NCBI GenBank assembly: GCA_963785335.1
Contig: CAWAUW010000002.1
Span: forward strand, 78,167-142,166
Origin: an uncultured Chlamydiales bacterium
GTDB lineage: Bacteria; Chlamydiota; Chlamydiia; Chlamydiales; FEN-1388
DNA length: 64,000 nt
Direction of reading: 5' to 3'
Below the pieces are notes generated by a model that saw nothing but the letters and a program-made list of their open reading frames with translations, was not told the DNA's origin and ran no database searches. The number at the start of each line of letters is the position of its first letter. Within the stretch, counting starts at the first letter, position 1. Of this stretch, positions 2,021-62,974 are shown in pieces. Position numbers and translations under genes: made by a program.

Positions 2021-4312
2021 TTAACGCCCTCTTCTTTTGCTGCGGTTTTTATCTTTTTTTGGCCTTTGTGATCTAATGTCTGGTCTTTTCTTAGGCAAAC
2101 TTTGCCCACCTTCCATATCTGAATGGGAAATAAGCTGCCAAGAGCAGTCCTGCAGGATAAAATCGATATGCCGTACTGATACGCTCACTTTATCACCTGC
2201 TTTATAACTTAAGCCTTTATAGCGGCCTAAAAGCATCATTTCTTTTTCACTATAGTCAAAAAAGTCTTCATCAAGCTCAGACACATGCAAAAAGCCTTCT
2301 AGCATAAATTCAAGCACATCAAAATATATGCCAAATGGCTTTACGCGGGTAACTACGCCCTCAAAGGTGCGATAACGCTCATGCTGACAACTTGCCGAAA
2401 GAAGCCTTAACTTCTTTAAGAAGGTGACTCCACCTTCGGCTCTTGCAGAAATACGCTCTCTTTCTGAGGCATCATCACTTATTGCCTGAAGCTTGTCGCG
2501 GTCTATATTGCCTTCAAAAAGTAATCGATGAATTATTGTATCAACATAGCGTCGAATGGGGCTTGTAAAGTGAGTATAATGCTCGAGGCTAAGTCCATAA
2601 TGGCCAATGTTGTCAGGGGAGTAGCAGGCAAGGCGCATACTGCGGATATAACATGTGGCAAGATACTGTGCAGATCGTCCTTCGTCAAGTTCAGAAAAGA
2701 AGGCTTGAATATCTTGTGGAGTAGGATCTTGTGGCAAATTATACCCAAAAGCGCAAGCAAGAGTGGCAAATTCGCGAAGTGATTCTTTGGCAGGCTCTTC
2801 GTGCACTCTAAAAGTAGCATTTTTGCCTTGTTTTGTAAGGGCAATGGCTACAGTTTCGTTTGCTTTAAGCATAAATTCTTCGACTAGCTGGTGCGTAATG
2901 TCATACTCAATGATTTCTGTACCAAAAGGCACTCCTGATTCGTCTACCTTTACTTTAAATTCGGGCATAAAAAGCTGCACGCTACCACGCTCTGAGCGTT
3001 TTTTCTTTAGCAAGTAGCAAAGCTCAAGCATTTGGTGCAATTTTGGCTTGTGGATACTTTCTAATTCGCCATCTAGTACTTTTTTGGCCTGTTTGTACGT
3101 AAAGCGTTTTTGACTTTTGATTACGCTGCGTACTATACGATACTCTTTTACATCGCCCTGATCATCGATATGGATAAACACGCTCACAGTAAGACGCAAA
3201 ACACCTTCTCGCAGCGAGCAGAGATTGTCTGACAACTCTGAAGGCAGCATGGGTATGCATTTACCAGGAAAGTATGTTGAATTGCAGCGTAAAGAGGCTT
3301 CACGATCTAATGCGGACTTATCTTTTACATAGTGCGATACATCAGCAATATGTACGCCAAGTACATATAATCCTTTTTGCATTTCAAGAGAGATGGCATC
3401 GTCATAGTCTTTTGCAGTATCTGGGTCGATAGTAAAGCATTCAAGCTCTCTGAGATCTTCGCGGCCTTCAAGATCTTCCTTTTTAACGCGCGTGCCATAC
3501 GAAAGCGCTTCTTCAACAGCATCTTGAGGAAATTCAGTACGTAGTTCGTTTTCTAAAATTGCTGCAGGAATATCGGTAGCAGGATCTGATATGTTGCCGA
3601 TTATTTTTGAAAGCTCGCCCTGCGCGCCTTCTTCCTTATTTCCCCATTTATTAACATCAAGTAGCACCCTATCGCCAATAACGAGCTTTTTATCAATATT
3701 TGCTACTTCTACAGTGCGCTTTTCACCAAGCAAGCTGCAATAAGCAAAAGCTTTGTTATCTGCTACATCCGCAATGGTGCCAACGATGGTTTTACGTTTA
3801 CGGGAGATAATGGATAAGATTTTACCTTCTGGTCCTCTTTCGGAGACAGCTTCTAAATTAATGAGAACTTCAACGACATCGCCGTCAATAGCATCGTTTA
3901 CATAAGGTTTTGGGATAAAAACATCAGGGTCTTGAGAATTTTTAATAACAACAAAGCCAAAGCCTCTTGGGTGCATTTTGATGGTGCCCACGACTATTTT
4001 TTCTGTGACTTTATCATTTTCATCGGGAGCTACAAGTCTATTACCTGTTTCTGCTACTTTCCCGGCACCTTTAAGGTCTTTTAGCACTAGATCAAATATT
4101 TCAAGATGTTCAGGATGAATTTTTAGACGCTCAATGAGTGATTCTTTATCTTGAGGGGAATAGTGCCTTCCTTTGAGATACTCGTAGGTAACTTTAAGCA
4201 GGTTCTGGAAGAGACGTTCTTGTTTTGCGCTTCCCTTGTGAGCACTTGCGTTTTGAACGCTAACAGGAGAGCTTTGTGAAGTTTCGCCGCTTTTGCGACG
4301 TTTTTTGGGCAT
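2021..4312 (-). CDS. rnr: ribonuclease R (VacB/RNase II family)
   Basis: 763 aa. Cold-shock-like N-terminal region, RNB catalytic core (FTIDPDTAKDYDDAISL, HIADVSHYV, YFPGKCIPMLP, FTSPIRRYVD), C-terminal S1 domain and a Lys/Arg-rich tail. Confidence 0.95.
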   Translation of the reverse strand: MPKKRRKSGETSQSSPVSVQNASAHKGSAKQERLFQNLLKVTYEYLKGRHYSPQDKESLIERLKIHPEHLEIFDLVLKDLKGAGKVAETGNRLVAPDENDKVTEKIVVGTIKMHPRGFGFVVIKNSQDPDVFIPKPYVNDAIDGDVVEVLINLEAVSERGPEGKILSIISRKRKTIVGTIADVADNKAFAYCSLLGEKRTVEVANIDKKLVIGDRVLLDVNKWGNKEEGAQGELSKIIGNISDPATDIPAAILENELRTEFPQDAVEEALSYGTRVKKEDLEGREDLRELECFTIDPDTAKDYDDAISLEMQKGLYVLGVHIADVSHYVKDKSALDREASLRCNSTYFPGKCIPMLPSELSDNLCSLREGVLRLTVSVFIHIDDQGDVKEYRIVRSVIKSQKRFTYKQAKKVLDGELESIHKPKLHQMLELCYLLKKKRSERGSVQLFMPEFKVKVDESGVPFGTEIIEYDITHQLVEEFMLKANETVAIALTKQGKNATFRVHEEPAKESLREFATLACAFGYNLPQDPTPQDIQAFFSELDEGRSAQYLATCYIRSMRLACYSPDNIGHYGLSLEHYTHFTSPIRRYVDTIIHRLLFEGNIDRDKLQAISDDASERERISARAEGGVTFLKKLRLLSASCQHERYRTFEGVVTRVKPFGIYFDVLEFMLEGFLHVSELDEDFFDYSEKEMMLLGRYKGLSYKAGDKVSVSVRHIDFILQDCSWQLISHSDMEGGQSLPKKRPDIRSQRPKKDKNRSKRRGR

Positions 4313-4443
4313 ATTTTGTCTTGGTTAAGGTATTAAACTTTTAGTATAATTTTTACTATAAAGACAAATTATACCAGAATCCTGCCGAAAAGAAAAGGGT
4401 TTAATTTGTTTTTGATACATAGGCGAAGCCTTTGTGGCGTTGC

Positions 4444-4636
4444 TGCATAATTCACCACCGAGTCACAGAGCTCACTGAGATATTCGAGAAAACTGAGATT
4501 GCTTACCTAGACAATTAAGCAACTAAGACAGTATTCCGATTTGAAAATCTAGAGATTTAAATACCTAGTTGCCTATTAATTTTTCTCCCTATCTCATACA
4601 CCTCAGTGAGCTCAGTGACTCCGTGGTTATTTATGC
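4444..4636. repeat. long imperfect palindromic intergenic element (~190 bp)
   Basis: Left arm tgcataattcaccaccgagtcacagagctcactgaga pairs with right arm cctcagtgagctcagtgactccgtggttatttatgca. The inverted symmetry continues inward (tgagatattcgagaaaa / ttttctccctatctca). It ends 8 bp from the stop of the 4644 gene. Confidence 0.7.
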
Positions 4637-4643
4637 AACAAGG

Positions 4644-6527
4644 CTATTGTGGATTGCAGCAAACATTTGACCCAGCAACTGCAGGGCTTGCACCCGGCAC
4701 CTGGGAAGGACTTACGTTTGTGCAATTGTGCACGCTATTGTTGCAGCTTGTGTTAAAATATGTTTCTGTAAAACCGGCAAAAGAAAGAGAAATGCCTGAT
4801 CTTGAGCCCCATACGCTGTTACCTGAAAGGTGGTTAGCCTTTTGGTCTGCTACAACAATACCGTTTACAGTGTTGTCATAAACTAAGCAGTTTTCAATAG
4901 AATTTTTGTCGCCACCTGCGCCATTGTCAATAAAAATCCCGCTATCACCATTGAAGATATTGGAATTTTTGACTACGCAGCTGGTTGCATCAAGCAAATA
5001 AACGTTTACATTTGTGCCACCGGATATTTGGCATTCATCTAAAGTGATTTTGTCGCCCACTTCTATATACACCGTTCTTCCGTTGCTGCCTTTTATTATG
5101 CAGTCTCTTGCCACAAGGTTTGTATAAGGAGTGCAAGCAGGCATACCAAAGTGAACAGCTGCTGGTAAATAGCCATTGGGAATATCTAAAGAAGAGGTAT
5201 CTATCAGTAGATTTTCTAAAAGACATCCGCTGCCGCCAAGTATTAAAAATCCATCAAAGCCTTGCACCGCAGTTGTCTGTGTAAAATTTGAATTTTGTAT
5301 AGTAACATCATTTGCATTGTTGGTTGGATCGCAGCTTCCAAGCTGTACAATATTTAAGTTTGAAATAGGGGAGGCTACTGCAATGCAGTGGTCAATTAAA
5401 AGACCCGTTACATTAAGCACCTGAATGGTACCAAGCCAATTGGTAAATGTGTCATTTGTTACTATAATATCTCGTGAATCACCTTCAATATGGAGTCCAA
5501 AAGATGTTCTTGATGGATCAAAAGTCAGATCTGCACCTACAAATGCACAAGAGTCAATAGTTACACCGGTAGAGCCATTAATCCAAATTCCACCCCCATT
5601 TCCAGATCCTGCAAGAGTGGCAGGGCTTGGAAAGTTTATCTGAACGATGCCTTCATGAGCTTCTACGTGTGAGTACTGAACCAGTACATCTGATGAGTTT
5701 TCAATTTCAATACCGCGTGTGGTATTTTTGGTATAAATATTGTTAATGGTTGCCTTTTGTACATTAATCAAATGAACCGCTGCACTTGTAGGGGATCTGA
5801 AAATACTTGCGCCCTGTATAATATCATTTTCTAAGGTAAATTCTGATACATTTAAAGCTACAATACCTTGTGCTGCACTATCAGTTAATGTAAGGCTATG
5901 GTTTTCAAAATTTATACTTACGTTATCGGCGGTAACGGTAATAGCAGTTCCTGGTCCATTGTATGTTAAATCGCGTGTAACGCAGTATTTTCCTGGCGCT
6001 GTAATAATTATAGGCACATTGCTAATTGCCATTTCATTACTGCATGGAAACTGCGTCTCTAAAAACGTAAGAATTTCAGCAAGATCTCTTTTAATATCTA
6101 CACAGCAATTCTTAAATTCAGATTCAATTTTGCCAATATCACCGCAAATATCGCATTGACCAGAACTACCACTATGATTATGCGATACGTGCAAAACATC
6201 ATTTTGATAGGTCGCTGTAAGCAGCTGCTGCATAATTGAATGAGCTTTTCTTACCTTTTCAGGTGATGCATTTATACCAGCGCGAAGCACCATTTCCGTG
6301 CTTTTAAGAGCGGCTTTGATTTTATTTTGAATATCGGGATCTTTTATTTTTCTTCCCAATGTTTTGAGCTTGGCTCTTGATGCCTTAAGACTTGTAAGTG
6401 TTATAGGCGCATCTTTTTCACTTTTGGCTTTTGCACTTTCAGCAGTATCCGCCATGACCGTGGAGGCAGTACATACAGCTAATAGTACTGCTAAGAGGCT
6501 AAAATTTTTTCGAAAGTTGATGTTCAT
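4644..6527 (-). CDS. secreted parallel beta-helix repeat protein with conserved Cys motifs (paralog A, type 1)
   Basis: Signal peptide MNINFRKNFSLLAVLLAVCTASTVMA. Lys-rich helical region, CDICGDIG...CCVDIK...FPC motif, GKYCVT, then repeated NxxI/V beta-helix rungs. C-terminal FNTSCNNSVHNC...AGSNVCCNPQ. Start set at the ATG at 6527 (GAGGAA 6 nt upstream). Confidence 0.8.
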   Translation of the reverse strand: MNINFRKNFSLLAVLLAVCTASTVMADTAESAKAKSEKDAPITLTSLKASRAKLKTLGRKIKDPDIQNKIKAALKSTEMVLRAGINASPEKVRKAHSIMQQLLTATYQNDVLHVSHNHSGSSGQCDICGDIGKIESEFKNCCVDIKRDLAEILTFLETQFPCSNEMAISNVPIIITAPGKYCVTRDLTYNGPGTAITVTADNVSINFENHSLTLTDSAAQGIVALNVSEFTLENDIIQGASIFRSPTSAAVHLINVQKATINNIYTKNTTRGIEIENSSDVLVQYSHVEAHEGIVQINFPSPATLAGSGNGGGIWINGSTGVTIDSCAFVGADLTFDPSRTSFGLHIEGDSRDIIVTNDTFTNWLGTIQVLNVTGLLIDHCIAVASPISNLNIVQLGSCDPTNNANDVTIQNSNFTQTTAVQGFDGFLILGGSGCLLENLLIDTSSLDIPNGYLPAAVHFGMPACTPYTNLVARDCIIKGSNGRTVYIEVGDKITLDECQISGGTNVNVYLLDATSCVVKNSNIFNGDSGIFIDNGAGGDKNSIENCLVYDNTVNGIVVADQKANHLSGNSVWGSRSGISLSFAGFTETYFNTSCNNSVHNCTNVSPSQVPGASPAVAGSNVCCNPQ

Positions 6528-8654: not shown

Positions 8655-8850
8655 GGTGCCCGGTCCAATCCCGTTCACTTAATCAAAATTTCAAGGCGAT
8701 AAAAATGATAGAACGATAGGAACGATAAAACGATGAAACATAAAAAACAAATTGTTGATAGCTTATCCAACGCTAAAACTAGGACAGCTCTTTTTCTTTT
8801 TCATCGTTTTTATCGTTCTATCGTTTTATCGTTTTATCGTTTTTACTATT
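8655..8850. repeat. palindromic intergenic element, GATAAAACGAT-word family
   Basis: Arms gcgataaaaatgatagaacgataggaacgataaaacgatgaaa (8697-8738) and ttcatcgtttttatcgttctatcgttttatcgttttatcgttttt (8800-8845). The centre and the left flank (ccgttcacttaatcaaaat) are homologous to the inner part of the 10439-10821 element. Confidence 0.75.
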
Positions 8851-8862
8851 AAAAGGTAGGGC

Positions 8863-10359
8863 CTAAAGCACGCTTTCCAACGAGCTATTTAAAATGTGTT
8901 CTTGCAAAAGACTTTTTTCTCGAAGTTTCTCCTGCCAGTAATGAAGTGCAAATTCAAGCACGGTAATAAGTTGATCCCCAAAGGCAATCATGCCATATCG
9001 CTGCTGCCGAAGGGCTCTAACTAACTCCTCAAGATTTATAATCAAAGTTTCAAGTGATGCTGCCTTGTCCATAAGCTGCTTTAAGAGCAAGCAGGCAAAT
9101 ACTGTGCCAGTCCTGCCATAACCACTCATGCAATGAATAACTGTTTTGCCGGGATTGGCCTTTTCAAGCTCACCAAGTGTTTGCAAAAAAGGCAGCAGCC
9201 GTAAAAGCGTAATGCCGTGCCCATCTACCCAGTCAAGTTGTATCTGATAAACTGTTTTATCATTAATCTGAAACTTGCGCTTAGAGCTTTTATTTAAGGG
9301 GTCAATATCACAGCTTGTACATGATACAGTTATGTTGTCATCATATTTTACCGAGTCATCTTTGTTTTGTGGAAAATAGCCCTTTTTATTCATTTCCTTT
9401 ACCATAACAATTACTGAAACATCGTTATCTAGTATATACTTCCAAAATTGCAAATATTGCCCTTCTTCAGGCTCTTCAGCAGCAATGCGAGTGCGATTAT
9501 CCAGACATTTGATAGGGCTTGCACCATAAAGTTCACAAACATTATGCGTAAATACACTGCCAAAATCTCCCGTCCTTTTCCAATTATTGTCTTCATGCCA
9601 TCCTTCTCGAAAAAGTAATCGGTCTAAAGAAGTTTCTGTCCATCTCTTATTTTGTAAATCATCTAATGAATAACAATGTCTACTCATTTTTTGTGAACTA
9701 AGCACCCCTTGATAATGAGTCCTATCAACTGAAGATTCAGGTTCTTTTGCTACAATCGCTACCAAAGGCATTTGCCTTTGTAAAGAACATACAAGGCCCT
9801 TAAAACTACTAACAGGCCAAGGATCAAGTTCTCCTGAAAGCGTTCCCTTTAGATTAAGTGCGCTCAAAGATGTAAGAGCTTTCCAATGGCGCTCATAAGG
9901 AGCGGTGTGCAAATGCGATCTTTCTAAACAAAGATACTGCAATTTCTCAAAGGCAGAAGGAATTTGCAAAAAATCGCCAACTATCTGGGCGTTGATAATA
10001 GTAAGCGATGTTAGTGTTGTAACAGCTTTTTTTTCTGGAAAAGCCACTACCTTTCCTACATCTGCATCATCTTTACCACGCAGCGAAAGCTCCTGAAGCT
10101 TGCTGCACGTCAAAAATACACTAAGCGGAAGATCGCATGTCATATGAAGTGCTACATCAATAACTTGAACCACATTTGCAAGCTTTACAAGTGGTATAAA
10201 ATGATCAGGCGTTAAGGGCATTTCAATAAAAAGATGGGTAACTGTTTTTAACCGGTCATAATAAGTAGGCAAATTAGCAAGCGTTTCGTCTTTGGGAATG
10301 CGCACTTCAGAGGGTTCTGTAATTGTTAAAGTTGCTAACGCTTGTGTTGCTTCAATCAT
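8863..10359 (-). CDS. leucine-rich-repeat protein fused to a classical protein tyrosine phosphatase domain
   Basis: The N-terminal half has LRR-like LxxLxL units (LQELSLRG, LTSLTIIN, LQYLCLERS, LSALNLKG). The C-terminal half has the PTP signature VIHCMSGYGRTG (HCx5R[ST]) and a WPD-like loop LDWVDGHG. Start set at ATG 10359; the ORF track begins at an upstream TTG at 10377. Confidence 0.8.
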   Translation of the reverse strand: MIEATQALATLTITEPSEVRIPKDETLANLPTYYDRLKTVTHLFIEMPLTPDHFIPLVKLANVVQVIDVALHMTCDLPLSVFLTCSKLQELSLRGKDDADVGKVVAFPEKKAVTTLTSLTIINAQIVGDFLQIPSAFEKLQYLCLERSHLHTAPYERHWKALTSLSALNLKGTLSGELDPWPVSSFKGLVCSLQRQMPLVAIVAKEPESSVDRTHYQGVLSSQKMSRHCYSLDDLQNKRWTETSLDRLLFREGWHEDNNWKRTGDFGSVFTHNVCELYGASPIKCLDNRTRIAAEEPEEGQYLQFWKYILDNDVSVIVMVKEMNKKGYFPQNKDDSVKYDDNITVSCTSCDIDPLNKSSKRKFQINDKTVYQIQLDWVDGHGITLLRLLPFLQTLGELEKANPGKTVIHCMSGYGRTGTVFACLLLKQLMDKAASLETLIINLEELVRALRQQRYGMIAFGDQLITVLEFALHYWQEKLREKSLLQEHILNSSLESVL

Positions 10360-10438
10360 TTGATAACCTTTTCCCAAATTTTAGCGGGTGATAATAGGGG
10401 ATTTACCAATAAAACTGCACATAAATTAATTATAAATA

Positions 10439-10821
10439 GGGGTCAGGTCTGGATGAAACGAATAGCTCTTTAAAGAATAACATCAACGAATTTATCCCCC
10501 GAAATCTACTCCTTTTTTTTCCGCAGCCGTGCAATACCGTTCACTTAATTAAAATCTAGAGAGAAAAAAATGATAAAAACGATAGAACGATAATAACGAT
10601 AAAACATAAAAAATTAAATTTCTTAACAGCTCATCTGCCGCTAAAATCTTAGTCATTTTTTATCGTTTTTATCGTTCTATCATTCTATCGTTTTACCTTT
10701 GATAGTAGAATTAATTGAACGGTATTGCGCTGCCGTGGGAACAACAGAACCAAATCTAGGAGGATTTTAGAGAGAAAAACCATCTTGTTTTAGGCTATTT
10801 GTTTCACTCCAGGTCTGGGGC
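10439..10821. repeat. composite nested palindromic element (three layers)
   Basis: Outer layer: ggggtcaggtctggatgaaacgaatagc / gctatttgtttcactccaggtctggggc. Middle layer: ccgcagccgtgcaataccgttcacttaatt / aattaattgaacggtattgcgctgccgtggg. Inner layer: the GATAAAACGAT-word palindrome shared with 8655-8850. Confidence 0.8.
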
Positions 10822-10837
10822 TGTTAAACATTAAAGT

Positions 10838-11638: not shown

Positions 11639-12085
11639 CGGGGTCAGGCATTACGACATTCTATAGTTTGGAATGTGAATGTCAGGCCTAACCCAATGTT
11701 GACCCAATGTTTGACCCAAATGTTCATGTTGGGAATCAGGCCTAGGGTGAAACAAATTGAAGATATTCGAAGAAAGCTTTGTCAATTTCCCCTTGATTGT
11801 TGTCCTGAAAGGACAAATTTATTAATAGCCCATGGTAAAACCGTGGGTATAGTTATAAATGAAGATTGAGTCGCTTCGCGACGACTTAATAAATGGGGAG
11901 TAGAATGTTAAGTTAAAATAATAAGCCCCCCTGAAACGACTTAATTTTATTTTACAATAATACCCACGGTTTCACCGTGGGCTATTAATAATTTTGTCCC
12001 TACAGGACAAAAGGCTTTCGTAGTTTGGAAACATAAAAAATCAGAAGCAAATGAACATTGACATTGAACATTGGGGTAACCTGTT
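11639..12085. repeat. composite nested palindromic element in a divergent intergenic region
   Basis: Outer word repeats: acccaatgttgacccaatgtttgacccaaatgttcat / atgaacattgacattgaacattggggt. Inner arms: ttgtcctgaaaggacaaatttattaatagcccatggtaaaaccgtgggtat / atacccacggtttcaccgtgggctattaataattttgtccctacaggacaa. It contains the shared motif cctagggtgaaacaaat. Confidence 0.7.
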
Positions 12086-12176
12086 TCTTTGCTGACGTAA
12101 AAACAAAGAATCTTCATACTTCCTTTATACTTTTATGCGATAAATTTATTAATGTTTATTTAAATAAGGCAATACT

Positions 12177-16430: not shown

Positions 16431-16613
16431 CTTCGTTTTTCCTTTGGTAGTTGATTCGATAAAAAAAGCGGCGATCTTCAAAAACAAACACGCCGGTTGG
16501 TGGTGAGAATGGATAATTGGCGAATTATTTTGTACAAAGATTTTATACCAATTTCAAAAAAACTGCAGACTTTGCTACACTTCATGGTCACTACACTATT
16601 TAAGGCAAGCCTC

Positions 16614-41502: not shown

Positions 41503-41623
41503 ATCACTTCTCCATTAATATAAAATTTGATATTTAGAAGGAAAATTTTTTTGAGTCAAGTGCAAATTTGACAAAATTACCGAGCATAAGGTATTTTTAT
41601 GTAAAACAAACCGAACCAGAAAT

Positions 41624-42448
41624 ATGATTAACCCTAAAGACAAAGATTTATTTTTAAAGCATCCAAACGATTTTGTACTGCGCCTTGACAATAGCAATCA
41701 ATTTTCCGTCGAAAAAAAAGGCATATGGACATGGTTTAAGGCACATACTTTTTGGAGTAATGAATATGACCTGCACAGAATCGTTGGTACAATCGAAAAA
41801 TTTGCTCAAAATTTTGAGAATGTTTTTTTGAGAGAAGTTAATAATAAAATTTACAATTACAATACAACTCGCGTTATAGATAAACAAATTCCCCCTTTGC
41901 AATTGACTAATATTTCATTCGTTGCCCGAAAAACACTCTCTTCGGAACATGCCCAAAAAGAAATCTCAGATGAGGACACTTTCATACATCGTGCAGTTTT
42001 GGAACATTTGCAGCCCTATTTAGATGGAAAAATTACTCGTAATAATGAAAATATTCATAGACCCCCTTTAGTCCCTTATATTCTTGATAAATTGCAAAAT
42101 GAATTTCCTTATAAGTCATTTGATGTAAAATTTGTATATAGCGCTGTACTTAAAGAATATATTGATATTGCTGCCTGGAGCGGTTGCTTTGCAGTATCAT
42201 CTGTATTTGTAAGCCAGCATACAGAACGAATTTTTCCAAAAACAAGTGACATTGTACAGCAAATTAAAGAGCCATTCCTGCATGCAATTCTAATAGACTT
42301 TAGAGATCAAGAGCTCCCAGATAATTTGGAAGCCCGGCTTAATATTGCTGTAAATAATTTTAAAACTCAATACAGCGCTGTCATCAAATCTGATAAAACA
42401 CCCTCCTCAGCAGGTAGACACCCAACACGCAAAATTTATGCGTCTTGA
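41624..42448 (+). CDS. hypothetical protein (274 aa)
   Basis: Long ORF with no recognisable motif and no clear RBS. Confidence 0.45.
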   Translation: MINPKDKDLFLKHPNDFVLRLDNSNQFSVEKKGIWTWFKAHTFWSNEYDLHRIVGTIEKFAQNFENVFLREVNNKIYNYNTTRVIDKQIPPLQLTNISFVARKTLSSEHAQKEISDEDTFIHRAVLEHLQPYLDGKITRNNENIHRPPLVPYILDKLQNEFPYKSFDVKFVYSAVLKEYIDIAAWSGCFAVSSVFVSQHTERIFPKTSDIVQQIKEPFLHAILIDFRDQELPDNLEARLNIAVNNFKTQYSAVIKSDKTPSSAGRHPTRKIYAS

Positions 42449-42516
42449 GCAGCAATTGAAACAAGATCCAAAAAATTTATTCTTATAAATTAGGGGGGAA
42501 GGCGCGGCATCTCTAC

Positions 42517-42962
42517 GCAGAAGTGTGAGATTTTTTTCAACACAGAGGCACAGAGAACACAGAGAGAGAGAGAGAGAAATACAAAAACAAAAGTGCTTCG
42601 CATAGAAAGTCACGTTAAGGAAATTGTATTAGCTCTGATAGAGCGTTATATCATAGCCCAGGTTGCAGCGAAGCGGAGGCCTGGGTAAACGACAAATAAT
42701 TAATAGAGACCTGTAGGGGCGGTATCTGGGCTATTGTTTGCAATCTAATATGTCGCCCCTATAGGGCTCAATCAATTACTTCATGGTTACCCAGGCCTTC
42801 GCTGGCGCTGCAACCTGGGCTACGAGATCTCGCCCTTTCAGGGCTAATACAAATTTCCTTAAGTTGCCTTTCTATGCGAAGCACTTTTGTTTTTGTATTT
42901 CTCTCTCTCTCTCTCTGTGTTCTCTGTGCCTCTGTGTTAAAAAAAAATCTCACACTTCTGCA
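42517..42962. repeat. CAGAG-word family palindrome (copy 3) carrying three further nested palindromes in its centre
   Basis: The outer arms match 19169-19378 and 24762-24945 (agtgtgagatttttttcaacacagaggcacagag...(ga)n...caaaagtgcttcgcat). Nested layers lie at about 42613-42866, 42650-42825 and 42710-42765. Confidence 0.85.
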
Positions 42963-43076
42963 ATAAGACGCTAACCCCTCGAATCTCTCTCTAGACACCT
43001 CTCACCGCTAAATCTTGTGCTATACCGGCTGATTTAGTATACTGTAGGCTTGCAAGTCTTTTATTAAGGATAAATC

Positions 43077-62311: not shown

Positions 62312-62724
62312 GGGTCAGAAACAGGATCAGAAACGGGGTCAGCCCAGACCTAGGGTGAAACAAATAGCCTAAAATTGCATAGTTTCCCACCCTAAAATTA
62401 CCTCCAAATTTAGTCCTGTTTTTCCAGCGGCAGCTGGAGTAGTGGGAAGCCCCGCATGCAGCGAGTTAGCGAGCGGAATGTGGGGGATAGGTGATAAATA
62501 AATATGAGCGGCGGCAGCTCGCGAAAGGAGTCTCGCAGCTGCCGCCGCTCATATATTTTATGTACATAACCCCACGTTCCATTATAGGCCTACCGGCCTG
62601 TCATTTCACGCGGGGCTTCCCGCTACTCCAGCTGCAGCTGGAAAAACAGGGCAAAAACTAGAGGGAAAAATATGCCAAGGGTTTATTAGAAAATCTTCGA
62701 TTTGTTTCACCCCACCCCTGACCC
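62312..62724. repeat. composite palindromic element nested at least four layers deep, in a divergent intergenic region
   Basis: Layer 1: gggtcag...cctagggtgaaacaaatagcc / cgatttgtttcaccccacccctgaccc. Layer 2: gtcctgtttttccagcggcagctggagtagtgggaagccccgc / gcggggcttcccgctactccagctgcagctggaaaaacagggc. Layer 3: gcggaatgtgggg / ccccacgttcc. Core: atatgagcggcggcagctcgcga / tctcgcagctgccgccgctcatat. Confidence 0.85.
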
Positions 62725-62974
62725 AATCGCCTAAATCCTTCAGCATCCCTGAATATGTTTCCAAAGACTATTCTTTTAGAAATTAGTATTGGTATAACAA
62801 CGATATTATGTGGTAAAGATAAAATCAATGCCCGCTTTACCTGCTACATATGAGATCGATAATAAGATCCTTCTTGCACGCTATTGCTGGCTCAGCATTC
62901 TTCTCAAAAATTTGTGATTAATTCACTTAAAAAGGCTGATTGCTACACTGGATAAACTAAAAACAAGACTTATC

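Follow-up and report, generated by a model that had tools for sequence, protein, structure and literature searches.

Here, we show that a 446-bp palindrome from an uncultured Chlamydiales bacterium is made of two independent families of repeats, one of which is nested in the other. The palindrome, P8, lies at positions 42517-42962 of a 64,000-nt stretch of contig CAWAUW010000002.1 (GenBank assembly GCA_963785335.1), to which we refer as the window; the palindromes that enter the argument are labelled P4 (at 11.8 kb), P5 (19.2 kb), P6 (24.8 kb), P7 (32.0 kb), P8 (42.5 kb), and P10 (52.5 kb). An earlier, sequence-only reading of this DNA had proposed that three further palindromes of other families replaced the loop of P8, and that such elements target the apices of existing hairpins. 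The finding is real as far as it concerns independent hairpin repeats nested at the exact loop; active targeting and three separate insertions go beyond the data. Our own reading, which we hold with slightly better than even confidence, is that P8 combines two non-coding hairpin repeats that are unrelated to each other; in this composite, a cargo that resembles a REPIN, an inverted pair of repetitive extragenic palindromic (REP) units, sits in the loop of a shell built of CRCARAG words and has moved as single-stranded DNA. Nested palindromic repeats are already known; host palindromes in both an empty and a filled state, which here occur together in one 64-kb window, have rarely been seen.

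P8 is located between two open reading frames (ORFs) on the plus strand, of 274 amino acids (41624-42448) and 1202 amino acids (43077-46685). The segment 42505-42975 folds into a single uninterrupted hairpin of about 446 nt with a free energy of -195 kcal/mol, compared to -52 ± 5 kcal/mol for shuffled sequence (z = -29.9). The left outer arm (42517-42609) comprises the terminus GCAGAAGTGTGAGATTTTTTT, the words CAACACAGAGGCACAGAGAACACAGAG, an (AG)8 microsatellite (42561-42576), an A-rich tract, and the inner core AAAGTGCTTCGCATAGAAAG, and the right outer arm (42868-42962) is its reverse complement, with 97% identity over the compared stretch. As an inverted-repeat pair the outer arms (42531-42625 and 42852-42946) extend over 95 nt and are 96% complementary, while two inner pairs, 42612-42670 with 42806-42864 and 42672-42721 with 42754-42803, are each 80% complementary. 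The centers of the three pairs fall at 42738.5, 42738, and 42737.5, so that all layers are concentric within 1 nt. Between the outer arms lies a 258-bp insert (42610-42867), itself palindromic (about 80% complementary), in place of the 17-nt loop on which the same core closes in P6. The insert is thus placed precisely at the apex, as originally proposed, and no direct repeats surround it. The microsatellites noticed earlier in the arms are also present, with the (AG)8 tract mirrored by (TC)8 at 42900-42915, equal in length and within an ungapped arm alignment.

The outer family consists of three copies in the window, P5 (19169-19378), P6 (24762-24945), and P8, and both their coordinates and their common termini are borne out: the arm pattern AACRCAGAGGCRCARAG has six matches in the window, one in each arm of each element, where none is expected from 100 dinucleotide-preserving shuffles. 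These CAGAG-word elements are non-coding, 184-446 bp in length, and contain no ORF of at least 100 amino acids. Their terminal inverted repeats have arms of 51-95 nt that are 84-96% complementary and are composed of purine-rich words of 7-9 nt following a TT(C)AAC-type terminus. P6, the copy without an insert, is located between convergent genes and shares the inner arm AAAGTGCTTCGCAT with P8 on both sides, closing on a short loop as had been noted. P5 has a different inner core, CATAGGGCTTTGCC.., and lies between the convergent genes for leucyl-tRNA synthetase (leuS; protein, LeuRS) and pterin-4a-carbinolamine dehydratase. A signature, GAAATACAAAA, is specific for the right arm in P5 and P6, yet occurs in the left arm of P8. 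We looked for target-site duplications and saw no direct repeat in the sequence flanking P5, P6, or P8; elements of the IS200/IS605 type and REPINs are known to make none. Exact terminus patterns gave no matches in genome-contig and metagenome-contig collections. A match at 48211-48229 was rejected as a chance occurrence, as it lies within coding sequence and has no partner arm.

Could the palindrome have been generated by the assembly, through fold-back or chimeric long reads? We find this hardly credible. The assembly probably does contain indel errors: one extra base near 18240, in '..GTACTTGCATCTT..', breaks leuS (16497-19137) up into two overlapping ORFs, removal of this base regains a conserved 11-residue LeuRS motif, and in relatives the gene is a single one of 840 amino acids. 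The frameshift is more probably an assembly error than a sign of a pseudogene, and it cautions that the lengths of homopolymers and microsatellites may not be exact; the homopolymers in the P8 arms indeed differ (T7 versus A9). However, the window harbors 11 long palindromes of several families, all within intergenic spacers, related elements are present in independent short-read assemblies of other organisms (with MEGAHIT- and SPAdes-style contig names, k141_ and NODE_), and P8 is interior to the window with intact ORFs on either side.

What is the nature of the sequence in the loop of P8? By plain sequence similarity, the 258-bp insert is unique in the window and unmatched in 2 Mb of fetched loci. 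A structure-aware search, using cmscan with the Rfam model RF01687 (Acido-Lenti-1; gathering score 37 bits), complemented with an alignment (A2) of eight units from P4, P7, P8, and P10, resolves the insert into two copies of one two-hairpin unit, in inverted orientation around a central hairpin. The left unit (42631-42685, minus strand; 31.7 bits, E = 2.6e-5 over 681 nt) comprises a first hairpin CCCAGG..CCTGGG, a CTA(T) tag, an AT-rich linker, and a second hairpin GCTCT..AGAGC. The right unit (42790-42846, plus strand), the limits of which were set by alignment A2, is inverted with respect to the left one; its reverse complement starts with GTAG and it has a local RF01687 match of 22.7 bits at 42814-42845. 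The GTAG-tagged central hairpin (42710-42765), in which CCTGTAGGGGCG and CGCCCCTATAGG are separated by 32 nt, forms the apex of the entire structure.

The plan shared by the eight aligned units is ACCCA, a stem-loop, TGGGCTA(Y), an AT-rich linker, a second stem-loop, and an A-run. The stems differ between loci yet remain paired, in the first hairpin (CCCAGG/CCTGGG, CCTAGGGC/GCCCTAGG, CCCACGG/CCGTGGG, CCCATAG/CTATGGG) as well as in the second (GCCCT/AGGGC, GCTCT/AGAGC, CAGCC/GGCTG, GTCC/GGAC, GGCGC/GCGCC). Read on the opposite strand, units start with (G/A)TAG and the stem follows immediately. The tag is GTAG in the right P8 unit and both P7 units, and ATAG in the left P8 unit and the P4 units, whereas P10 has one ATAG and one AAAG. 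This arrangement is characteristic of GTAG-tagged REP elements, as the inverted pairing is of REPINs, and it indicates that the two outer concentric palindromes previously assigned to separate families are the two hairpins of a single unit type. The concentric layering holds to within 1 nt, and the assignment to three families does not; an inverted, REPIN-like pair of a single two-hairpin unit around a central GTAG hairpin is the best reading of the insert and is more economical than three insertions.

Three further dimers of the unit stand alone in the window. P10 (52450-52695), which lacks CAGAG arms, matches RF01687 at 52645-52689 (plus strand, 34.7 bits) and 52456-52500 (minus strand, 28.2 bits). 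In P4 (11800-12010), one match is found at 11963-12009 (plus strand, 25.2 bits), and the left-arm unit is defined by alignment A2 only, as are both units of P7 (32022-32253). There are thus four inner-unit dimers in 64 kb, of which P8 and P10 show minus/plus pairs of RF01687-like matches. None of the window matches reaches the gathering threshold, the best scores being 34.7, 31.7, 28.2, 25.2, and 22.7 bits. As the inner unit occurs without CAGAG arms at three sites (P4, P7, and P10) and the CAGAG family without the inner unit at two, P8 is a nest of two independent repeat families. Matches to miRNA precursors in the same Rfam scan were dismissed as generic long-hairpin matches.

The unit resembles Acido-Lenti-1 in its order of hairpin 1, GCUA(Y), AU-rich linker, hairpin 2, and a following U, with both hairpins connected through a GCUA..UAU linker, and partly in sequence. 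Acido-Lenti-1 occurs in multiple copies per genome in, among others, Lentisphaerae, which belong to the same PVC (Planctomycetes, Verrucomicrobia, Chlamydiae) superphylum as the host, and sometimes beside group II introns (Weinberg et al. 2010, PMC2864571). We observed such a neighborhood in one relative, L081 (region 20823-22523), where the reverse transcriptase gene of a group II intron closely follows an Acido-Lenti-1-like unit (20823-20883, 33.8 bits). In contrast to Acido-Lenti-1 proper, the window matches are sub-threshold (22.7-34.7 versus 37 bits) and the units are inverted pairs inside palindromes, an arrangement more readily expected of a DNA repeat than of a small RNA acting in trans. 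With REPs and REPINs the inner element shares the inverted pairing of short hairpin units, in some units the GTAG, and in others an ATAG, directly before the stem on the reverse strand, and the non-coding, intergenic, repeated occurrence (four dimers in 64 kb) without target-site duplication. It differs from them in that the unit has two hairpins and an AT-rich linker where a REP has one hairpin, in that the tag is not always GTAG, and in that the 64-kb window encodes no REP-associated tyrosine transposase (RAYT). GTAG REP dimers at the center of longer palindromes have been described in Anabaena variabilis, Thermomicrobium roseum, and Halothiobacillus neapolitanus, and Chlamydiota are absent from the phyla listed for GTAG REPs (PMC3733652). 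Compared to the centered dimers of Anabaena and Halothiobacillus, the window additionally contains "empty" host palindromes, P5 and P6.

Acido-Lenti-1 is filed as a small RNA in Rfam, which raises the possibility that the elements serve the host as RNA stabilizers at 3′ ends, bidirectional terminators, or small RNAs, with the layering reflecting assembly of functional modules. All 11 long palindromes of the window (150-450 bp) are intergenic and start near stop codons, the unit hairpins of alignment A2 stay paired despite changes on both sides, and by eye an 11-bp stem in the P6 core has an A-tract before it and a T-rich tract after it, whichever strand is read. Nonetheless, a terminator scan calls none at P5, P6, or P8, an A-run rather than a U-run follows the outer stem on both strands, an ordinary terminator exists separately beside P7 (31922-31963), and the corresponding sites in relatives are free of these elements. 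Moreover, across 93 hairpins of the wider family described below, G-U pairs and folding energy reveal no significant strand preference (p = 0.13); that neither strand folds better favors a DNA-level palindrome or use of both strands over a one-strand RNA. A host-serving role as the reason for the layering therefore seems very doubtful to us. The terminator-like structure beside P7 is part of a region (31922-32012) in which a perfect 42-bp palindrome overlaps the stop codon of a 533-aa gene, with a (TA)n microsatellite next to it and P7 after that.

Does the central position of the cargo imply that hairpin loops are targeted? Within the window, all six multi-layer palindromes (at 10.5, 19.2, 24.8, 42.5, 52.5, and 62.5 kb) are concentric within 5 nt, and microsatellite register variants aside, none of the 20 inverted-repeat pairs in the window reveals eccentric layering. 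Six central insertions would have a probability of about 1e-8 under uniform random insertion into hosts of 180-270 bp, a figure that disregards both the loss or oversight of off-center inserts and fold-back copying, which yields concentric layers without insertion. The layers are also combinatorial, as the 10.5-kb and 62.5-kb palindromes have the same outer arms with different interiors, while those at 8.7 and 10.5 kb have an inner ACGATA-word palindrome in common and differ in the exterior; deletion alone is therefore insufficient. The earlier interpretation stands only in part. Nesting at the exact loop and the concentricity of all six cases support it, but instead of targeting, selective survival of loop inserts, variable cargo, or arm-to-arm templating would each yield the same picture. 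In a folded strand, the loop is the only unpaired target and also the only insertion site that spares the host palindrome, which makes targeting and survivorship inseparable in these data. In addition, arms in two members of the wider family (L222 and L290) are multiplied on one side only, indicating that not all events are symmetric.

The ACGATA-word palindromes make up a second word-built family, of tandem ACGATA(A/G)A words, at 8697-8845 and 10567-10694. The copy at 10.5 kb is nested in two more palindromic layers, and the one at 8.7 kb has an outer arm on one side only (GTCCAATCCCGTTCACTTAAT). GGGTCAG words followed by CCTAGGGTGAAACAAAT form an extra outer layer of the palindromes at 10.5, 11.8, and 62.5 kb (10438-10465, 10786-10822, 11735-11760, 62310-62365, and 62690-62725).

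Insertion into or directly after a hairpin has precedents in IS1397 and ISKpn1, which enter REP loops, in class C group II introns, which follow terminator hairpins, and in the intervening sequences of 23S rRNA, located in the loops of helices 25 and 45. In these cases, as in P8, a mobile sequence lies in or right after a hairpin of which the stem is left intact. The known cases are coding elements or introns with known enzymes, whereas both partners in the window are non-coding. Insertion sequence (IS) elements are also reported to insert into REPs (PMC1525189). A similar arrangement is visible in a Waddliaceae metagenome-assembled genome (MAG; L091), in which a group II intron (2920-3544; RF02005, 109 bits) begins about 35 nt past a palindrome cluster.

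How might the composite have formed? In the reading that we favor, the inner dimer would have moved as single-stranded DNA by means of an HUH/Y1 transposase, of the RAYT or IS200 type, encoded elsewhere in the genome. Such a route is suggested by the properties of Y1/HUH enzymes, which act on hairpin-bearing single strands, leave no duplication, and mobilize GTAG REPs, for which the Y1/HUH (RAYT) transposases are the accepted mobilizers (PMC3733652). The dimer may have landed in the loop as the only unpaired part of a long palindrome that is folded in the lagging-strand template at a replication fork, and loop insertion would be the only kind that preserves the host palindrome. Later arm-to-arm templated correction, through quasi-palindrome template switching or folded-strand repair, could then have rendered the outer arms of P8 near-identical, as suggested by their 97% identity, the equal microsatellites, and the right-arm motif in the left arm.

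Several observations weigh against this reading. The CAGAG family offers a single nested case (n = 1), and the apex position could reflect survival instead of targeting. Scanning of the window proteins revealed no transposase, recombinase, or HUH protein within the 64 kb. The inner units remain under the Rfam threshold (at best 34.7 versus 37 bits), and GTAG is present in some units only, the rest having ATAG or AAAG. Furthermore, the outer arms are 97-100% alike and the inner layers about 80%, the opposite of a simple clock in which outer is older, so that homogenization of the arms has to be assumed. Such homogenization is not general, as arm identity within copies exceeds that between copies in only six of nine genomes (p = 0.3), which points to a correction specific to P8 and not to a rule for the family.

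The same arm similarity invites a different explanation, namely outward growth, in which replication stalls at a hairpin and the nascent strand folds back and copies one flank across, adding a new perfect outer layer around an older palindrome and making concentricity automatic. The higher likeness of the outer arms (97-100% versus about 80%), the GAAATACAAAA motif in the left arm of P8, and the equal length of (AG)8 and (TC)8 would all follow, and solo arms do occur in the wider family, with 32 of 125 seeds among the matches listed having no partner within 230 nt. Still, outward growth leaves unexplained why the same termini and words recur at three unrelated loci and why both halves of a P6-type core surround the cargo; it also requires a half-element beside a REP dimer beforehand, and the arm effect, as said, is not general. 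We regard it as quite improbable.

That the outer family has spread by insertion is indicated by a comparison with two relatives, L081 (LeuRS 86% identical) and L164 (84%), in each of which 22.5 kb was read and the corresponding sites are empty; both are too diverged for base-exact empty sites. In both L081 and L164, about 20 bp at the P5 site are shared by leuS and the pterin-4a-carbinolamine dehydratase gene, where the window has a 263-bp spacer holding P5. The genes at the P6 site (ExoD) overlap in L164 without a spacer, and L081 has a different palindrome there. At the P8 site, a 122-bp spacer separates the superoxide dismutase and 1200-aa genes in L164, and both of its ends flank a block of about 1.48 kb in the window (41503-43076), such that P8 and the 274-aa ORF together constitute one indel. 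This ORF has no Pfam or NCBIfam match. P6 is located 3′ of an oxidoreductase gene, of which the best matches (60-66%) are from Nitrososphaeraceae, Acidobacteriota, and Gemmatimonadota, suggesting from sequence comparison that it may have been acquired horizontally. Lineage-specific genes thus precede two of the three CAGAG copies, P6 and P8, which are placed at their 3′ ends. The region 21375-24453, with genes for a HEAT-repeat protein and for a cNMP-binding/glutaredoxin/pyridine-nucleotide-disulphide oxidoreductase, is not found at this position in L081 or L164. For further loci, a search with the 1202-aa gene recovered two, and a LeuRS pattern search returned distant relatives only (at most 61% identity).

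In being small, non-coding, bounded by inverted repeats, dispersed, and absent from orthologous sites, the CAGAG element resembles miniature inverted-repeat transposable elements (MITEs), including nested ones (Nezha, Correia/NEMIS, and RUP). In contrast to MITEs, it lacks a target-site duplication, is as a whole a palindrome of short tandem words in place of short terminal repeats around unique sequence, and has gene-bearing relatives that carry a PD-(D/E)XK (GxxExxY) gene, not a recognized transposase. An IS with ends that match the element is not known.

These relatives were found with a pattern derived from the arms, AGGCRCARAGN{2,3}RCARAGN{2,4}RCARAG, searched in a species-representative genome collection. 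It retrieved at least 120 loci, compared to about 26 chance matches expected over the entire collection from an information-content estimate rather than from shuffling. Among the matches listed, to which the following counts also refer, are Acidobacteriota, Planctomycetota, Verrucomicrobiota, Proteobacteria, Chloroflexota, Bacteroidota, Gemmatimonadota, and others; conservation extends to the 10 bases upstream, outside the query pattern, which read TTCAAC, TTCACC, or TTAAC followed by RCAR, and 93 of 125 seeds have a partner arm within 230 nt with which they fold. No CRCARAG-word arrays occur in 1.85 Mb of unrelated loci. The window arms belong to this class, with their TT(C)AAC-type terminus, at least three CRCARAG words, and a reverse-complement partner arm. 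Another, more distant chlamydial MAG (L085) has two CRCARAG-word arrays, one of them nested. Polaromonas hairpins among the candidates were considered as the Burkholderiales-1 motif and rejected, as the sequence differs.

Apex cargo recurs in this wider family. Inner palindromes occupy the apex in L193, L231, and L272, and in L222 the apex holds a gene for a GxxExxY protein (TIGR04256, E = 1.3e-39). L222 is the only case of gene cargo among the matches listed for the at least 120 pattern-selected loci, and an Acido-Lenti-1-like cargo was not found in CAGAG hairpins of other phyla. We subsequently examined the DNA around GxxExxY homologs from six further clusters (67-76% identical; Lentisphaerae, Anaerolineaceae, and metagenomic bacteria). 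In all six, and thus in seven of seven with L222, CRCARAG-word arms with the same terminus lie within about 100 nt of the gene, and in L222, L285, L295, and L309 the gene stands between left-type and right-type arms. In L313, it is placed between two complete small hairpins at the hsdS-hsdR junction of a type I restriction system. The likeness to the window family extends to the terminus (TTCAAC, TTAAC, or TTGAC) and the words that flank the gene (TIGR04256/PF13366, PDDEXK_3), and the L295 arm TTCAACACAGAGGCACAGAGGCACAAAG is nearly identical to TTCAACACAGAGGCACAGAGAACACAGAG of the window. The gene itself, however, is absent from the window and from the chlamydial loci examined with tblastn. 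Our literature search found no description of an association between CRCARAG hairpins and GxxExxY genes. Word arrays of this kind may often be present as N-terminal extensions of GxxExxY and four-helix-bundle proteins, which served as a lead only; the seven loci constitute the test. In assemblies of polysaccharide loci, the same GxxExxY gene with its arms is found between different neighbors (L285 compared to L286 and L290), and the number of arm copies is unequal per side in L290 and L222, with three to four on the left and two on the right.

The gene-bearing elements suggest that the middle of the CAGAG element might simply hold variable cargo, a GxxExxY gene in other phyla and a REP-type dimer in P8, with the arms as its terminal inverted repeats and with P5 and P6 as internally deleted derivatives comparable to those of classical MITEs, in which case no apex would be targeted. 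The GxxExxY genes between left- and right-type arms and the arms near all seven clusters are what this explanation predicts, and long palindromes are known to suffer center-symmetric deletions that depend on SbcCD processing. We consider it rather unlikely, however. The cargo family of P8 also stands alone in P4, P7, and P10, so that its entry into a CAGAG shell is needed once in any case, direct repeats that could drive a precise deletion are lacking around the cargo, and the small cores of P5 and P6 differ, which is hard to obtain from one deletion series.

A related scenario, unlikely in our judgment, is that a selfish element spreads horizontally, with a GxxExxY PD-(D/E)XK nuclease gene at the hairpin apex in its complete form and with CRCARAG hairpins as its empty shells. 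The nuclease would cut the extruded hairpin or cruciform of an empty shell in or close to the loop, and repair from a filled copy through the word-repeat arms would insert the cargo at the apex, a form of homing into hairpin landing pads. If true, this would account for the central cargo, the same arms across phyla, and the perfect complementarity of arms, and the shells in this chlamydia would be relics or be served in trans, with one of them taken by a REP-type dimer.

The composite reading of P8 has implications beyond this locus. Both partners have independent copies, which makes P8 a clean, naturally occurring example with which to ask whether single-stranded mobile DNA preferentially lands in hairpin loops. 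Acido-Lenti-1, filed as an "sRNA" in Rfam, behaves here as a DNA repeat of the REP/REPIN type, and the hairpin-GxxExxY link offers a starting point for testing what a very large, uncharacterized protein family does; both may outweigh the locus itself in importance. For chlamydial genomics, the window shows that repeats of this kind can crowd the spacers between genes in some environmental chlamydiae and yet be missing from close relatives.

Long palindromes take up most of the larger intergenic spacers in the window; besides the three CAGAG copies, they are located at 4437-4644, 8660-8860, 10438-10822, 11640-12090, 32022-32253, 51433-51614, 52450-52695, and 62334-62725. In L164, no long inverted repeats are present in 22.5 kb and convergent genes overlap, versus 11 in the 64-kb window. 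L081 has four long palindromes in 22.5 kb, shorter than those of the window. This closest relative has word-built palindromes of other words, CGCGAAGAT at 9803-9918, with 49-nt arms that are 100% complementary, and AAGGAC at 881-981; the words of the word-built palindromes thus differ between L081 and the window while the architecture is constant.

LeuRS of the window is 83-86% identical to proteins of metagenomic bacteria, and the named organisms, lower in the list of matches, are Chlamydiales, Parachlamydiaceae, and Verrucomicrobia MAGs. A cyanobacterial host carrying small dispersed repeats or MITEs of the Nezha type was considered and rejected on the basis of these LeuRS relatives. The window genes include those for beta-helix proteins, eukaryote-like kinases and phosphatases, a leucine-rich repeat (LRR)/BTB protein, and toxin-antitoxin pairs, a content that is consistent with an environmental chlamydia. 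An ORF at 57568-58797 encodes a flagellar hook FlgE/F/G D1 domain, which is unexpected for a chlamydial genome.

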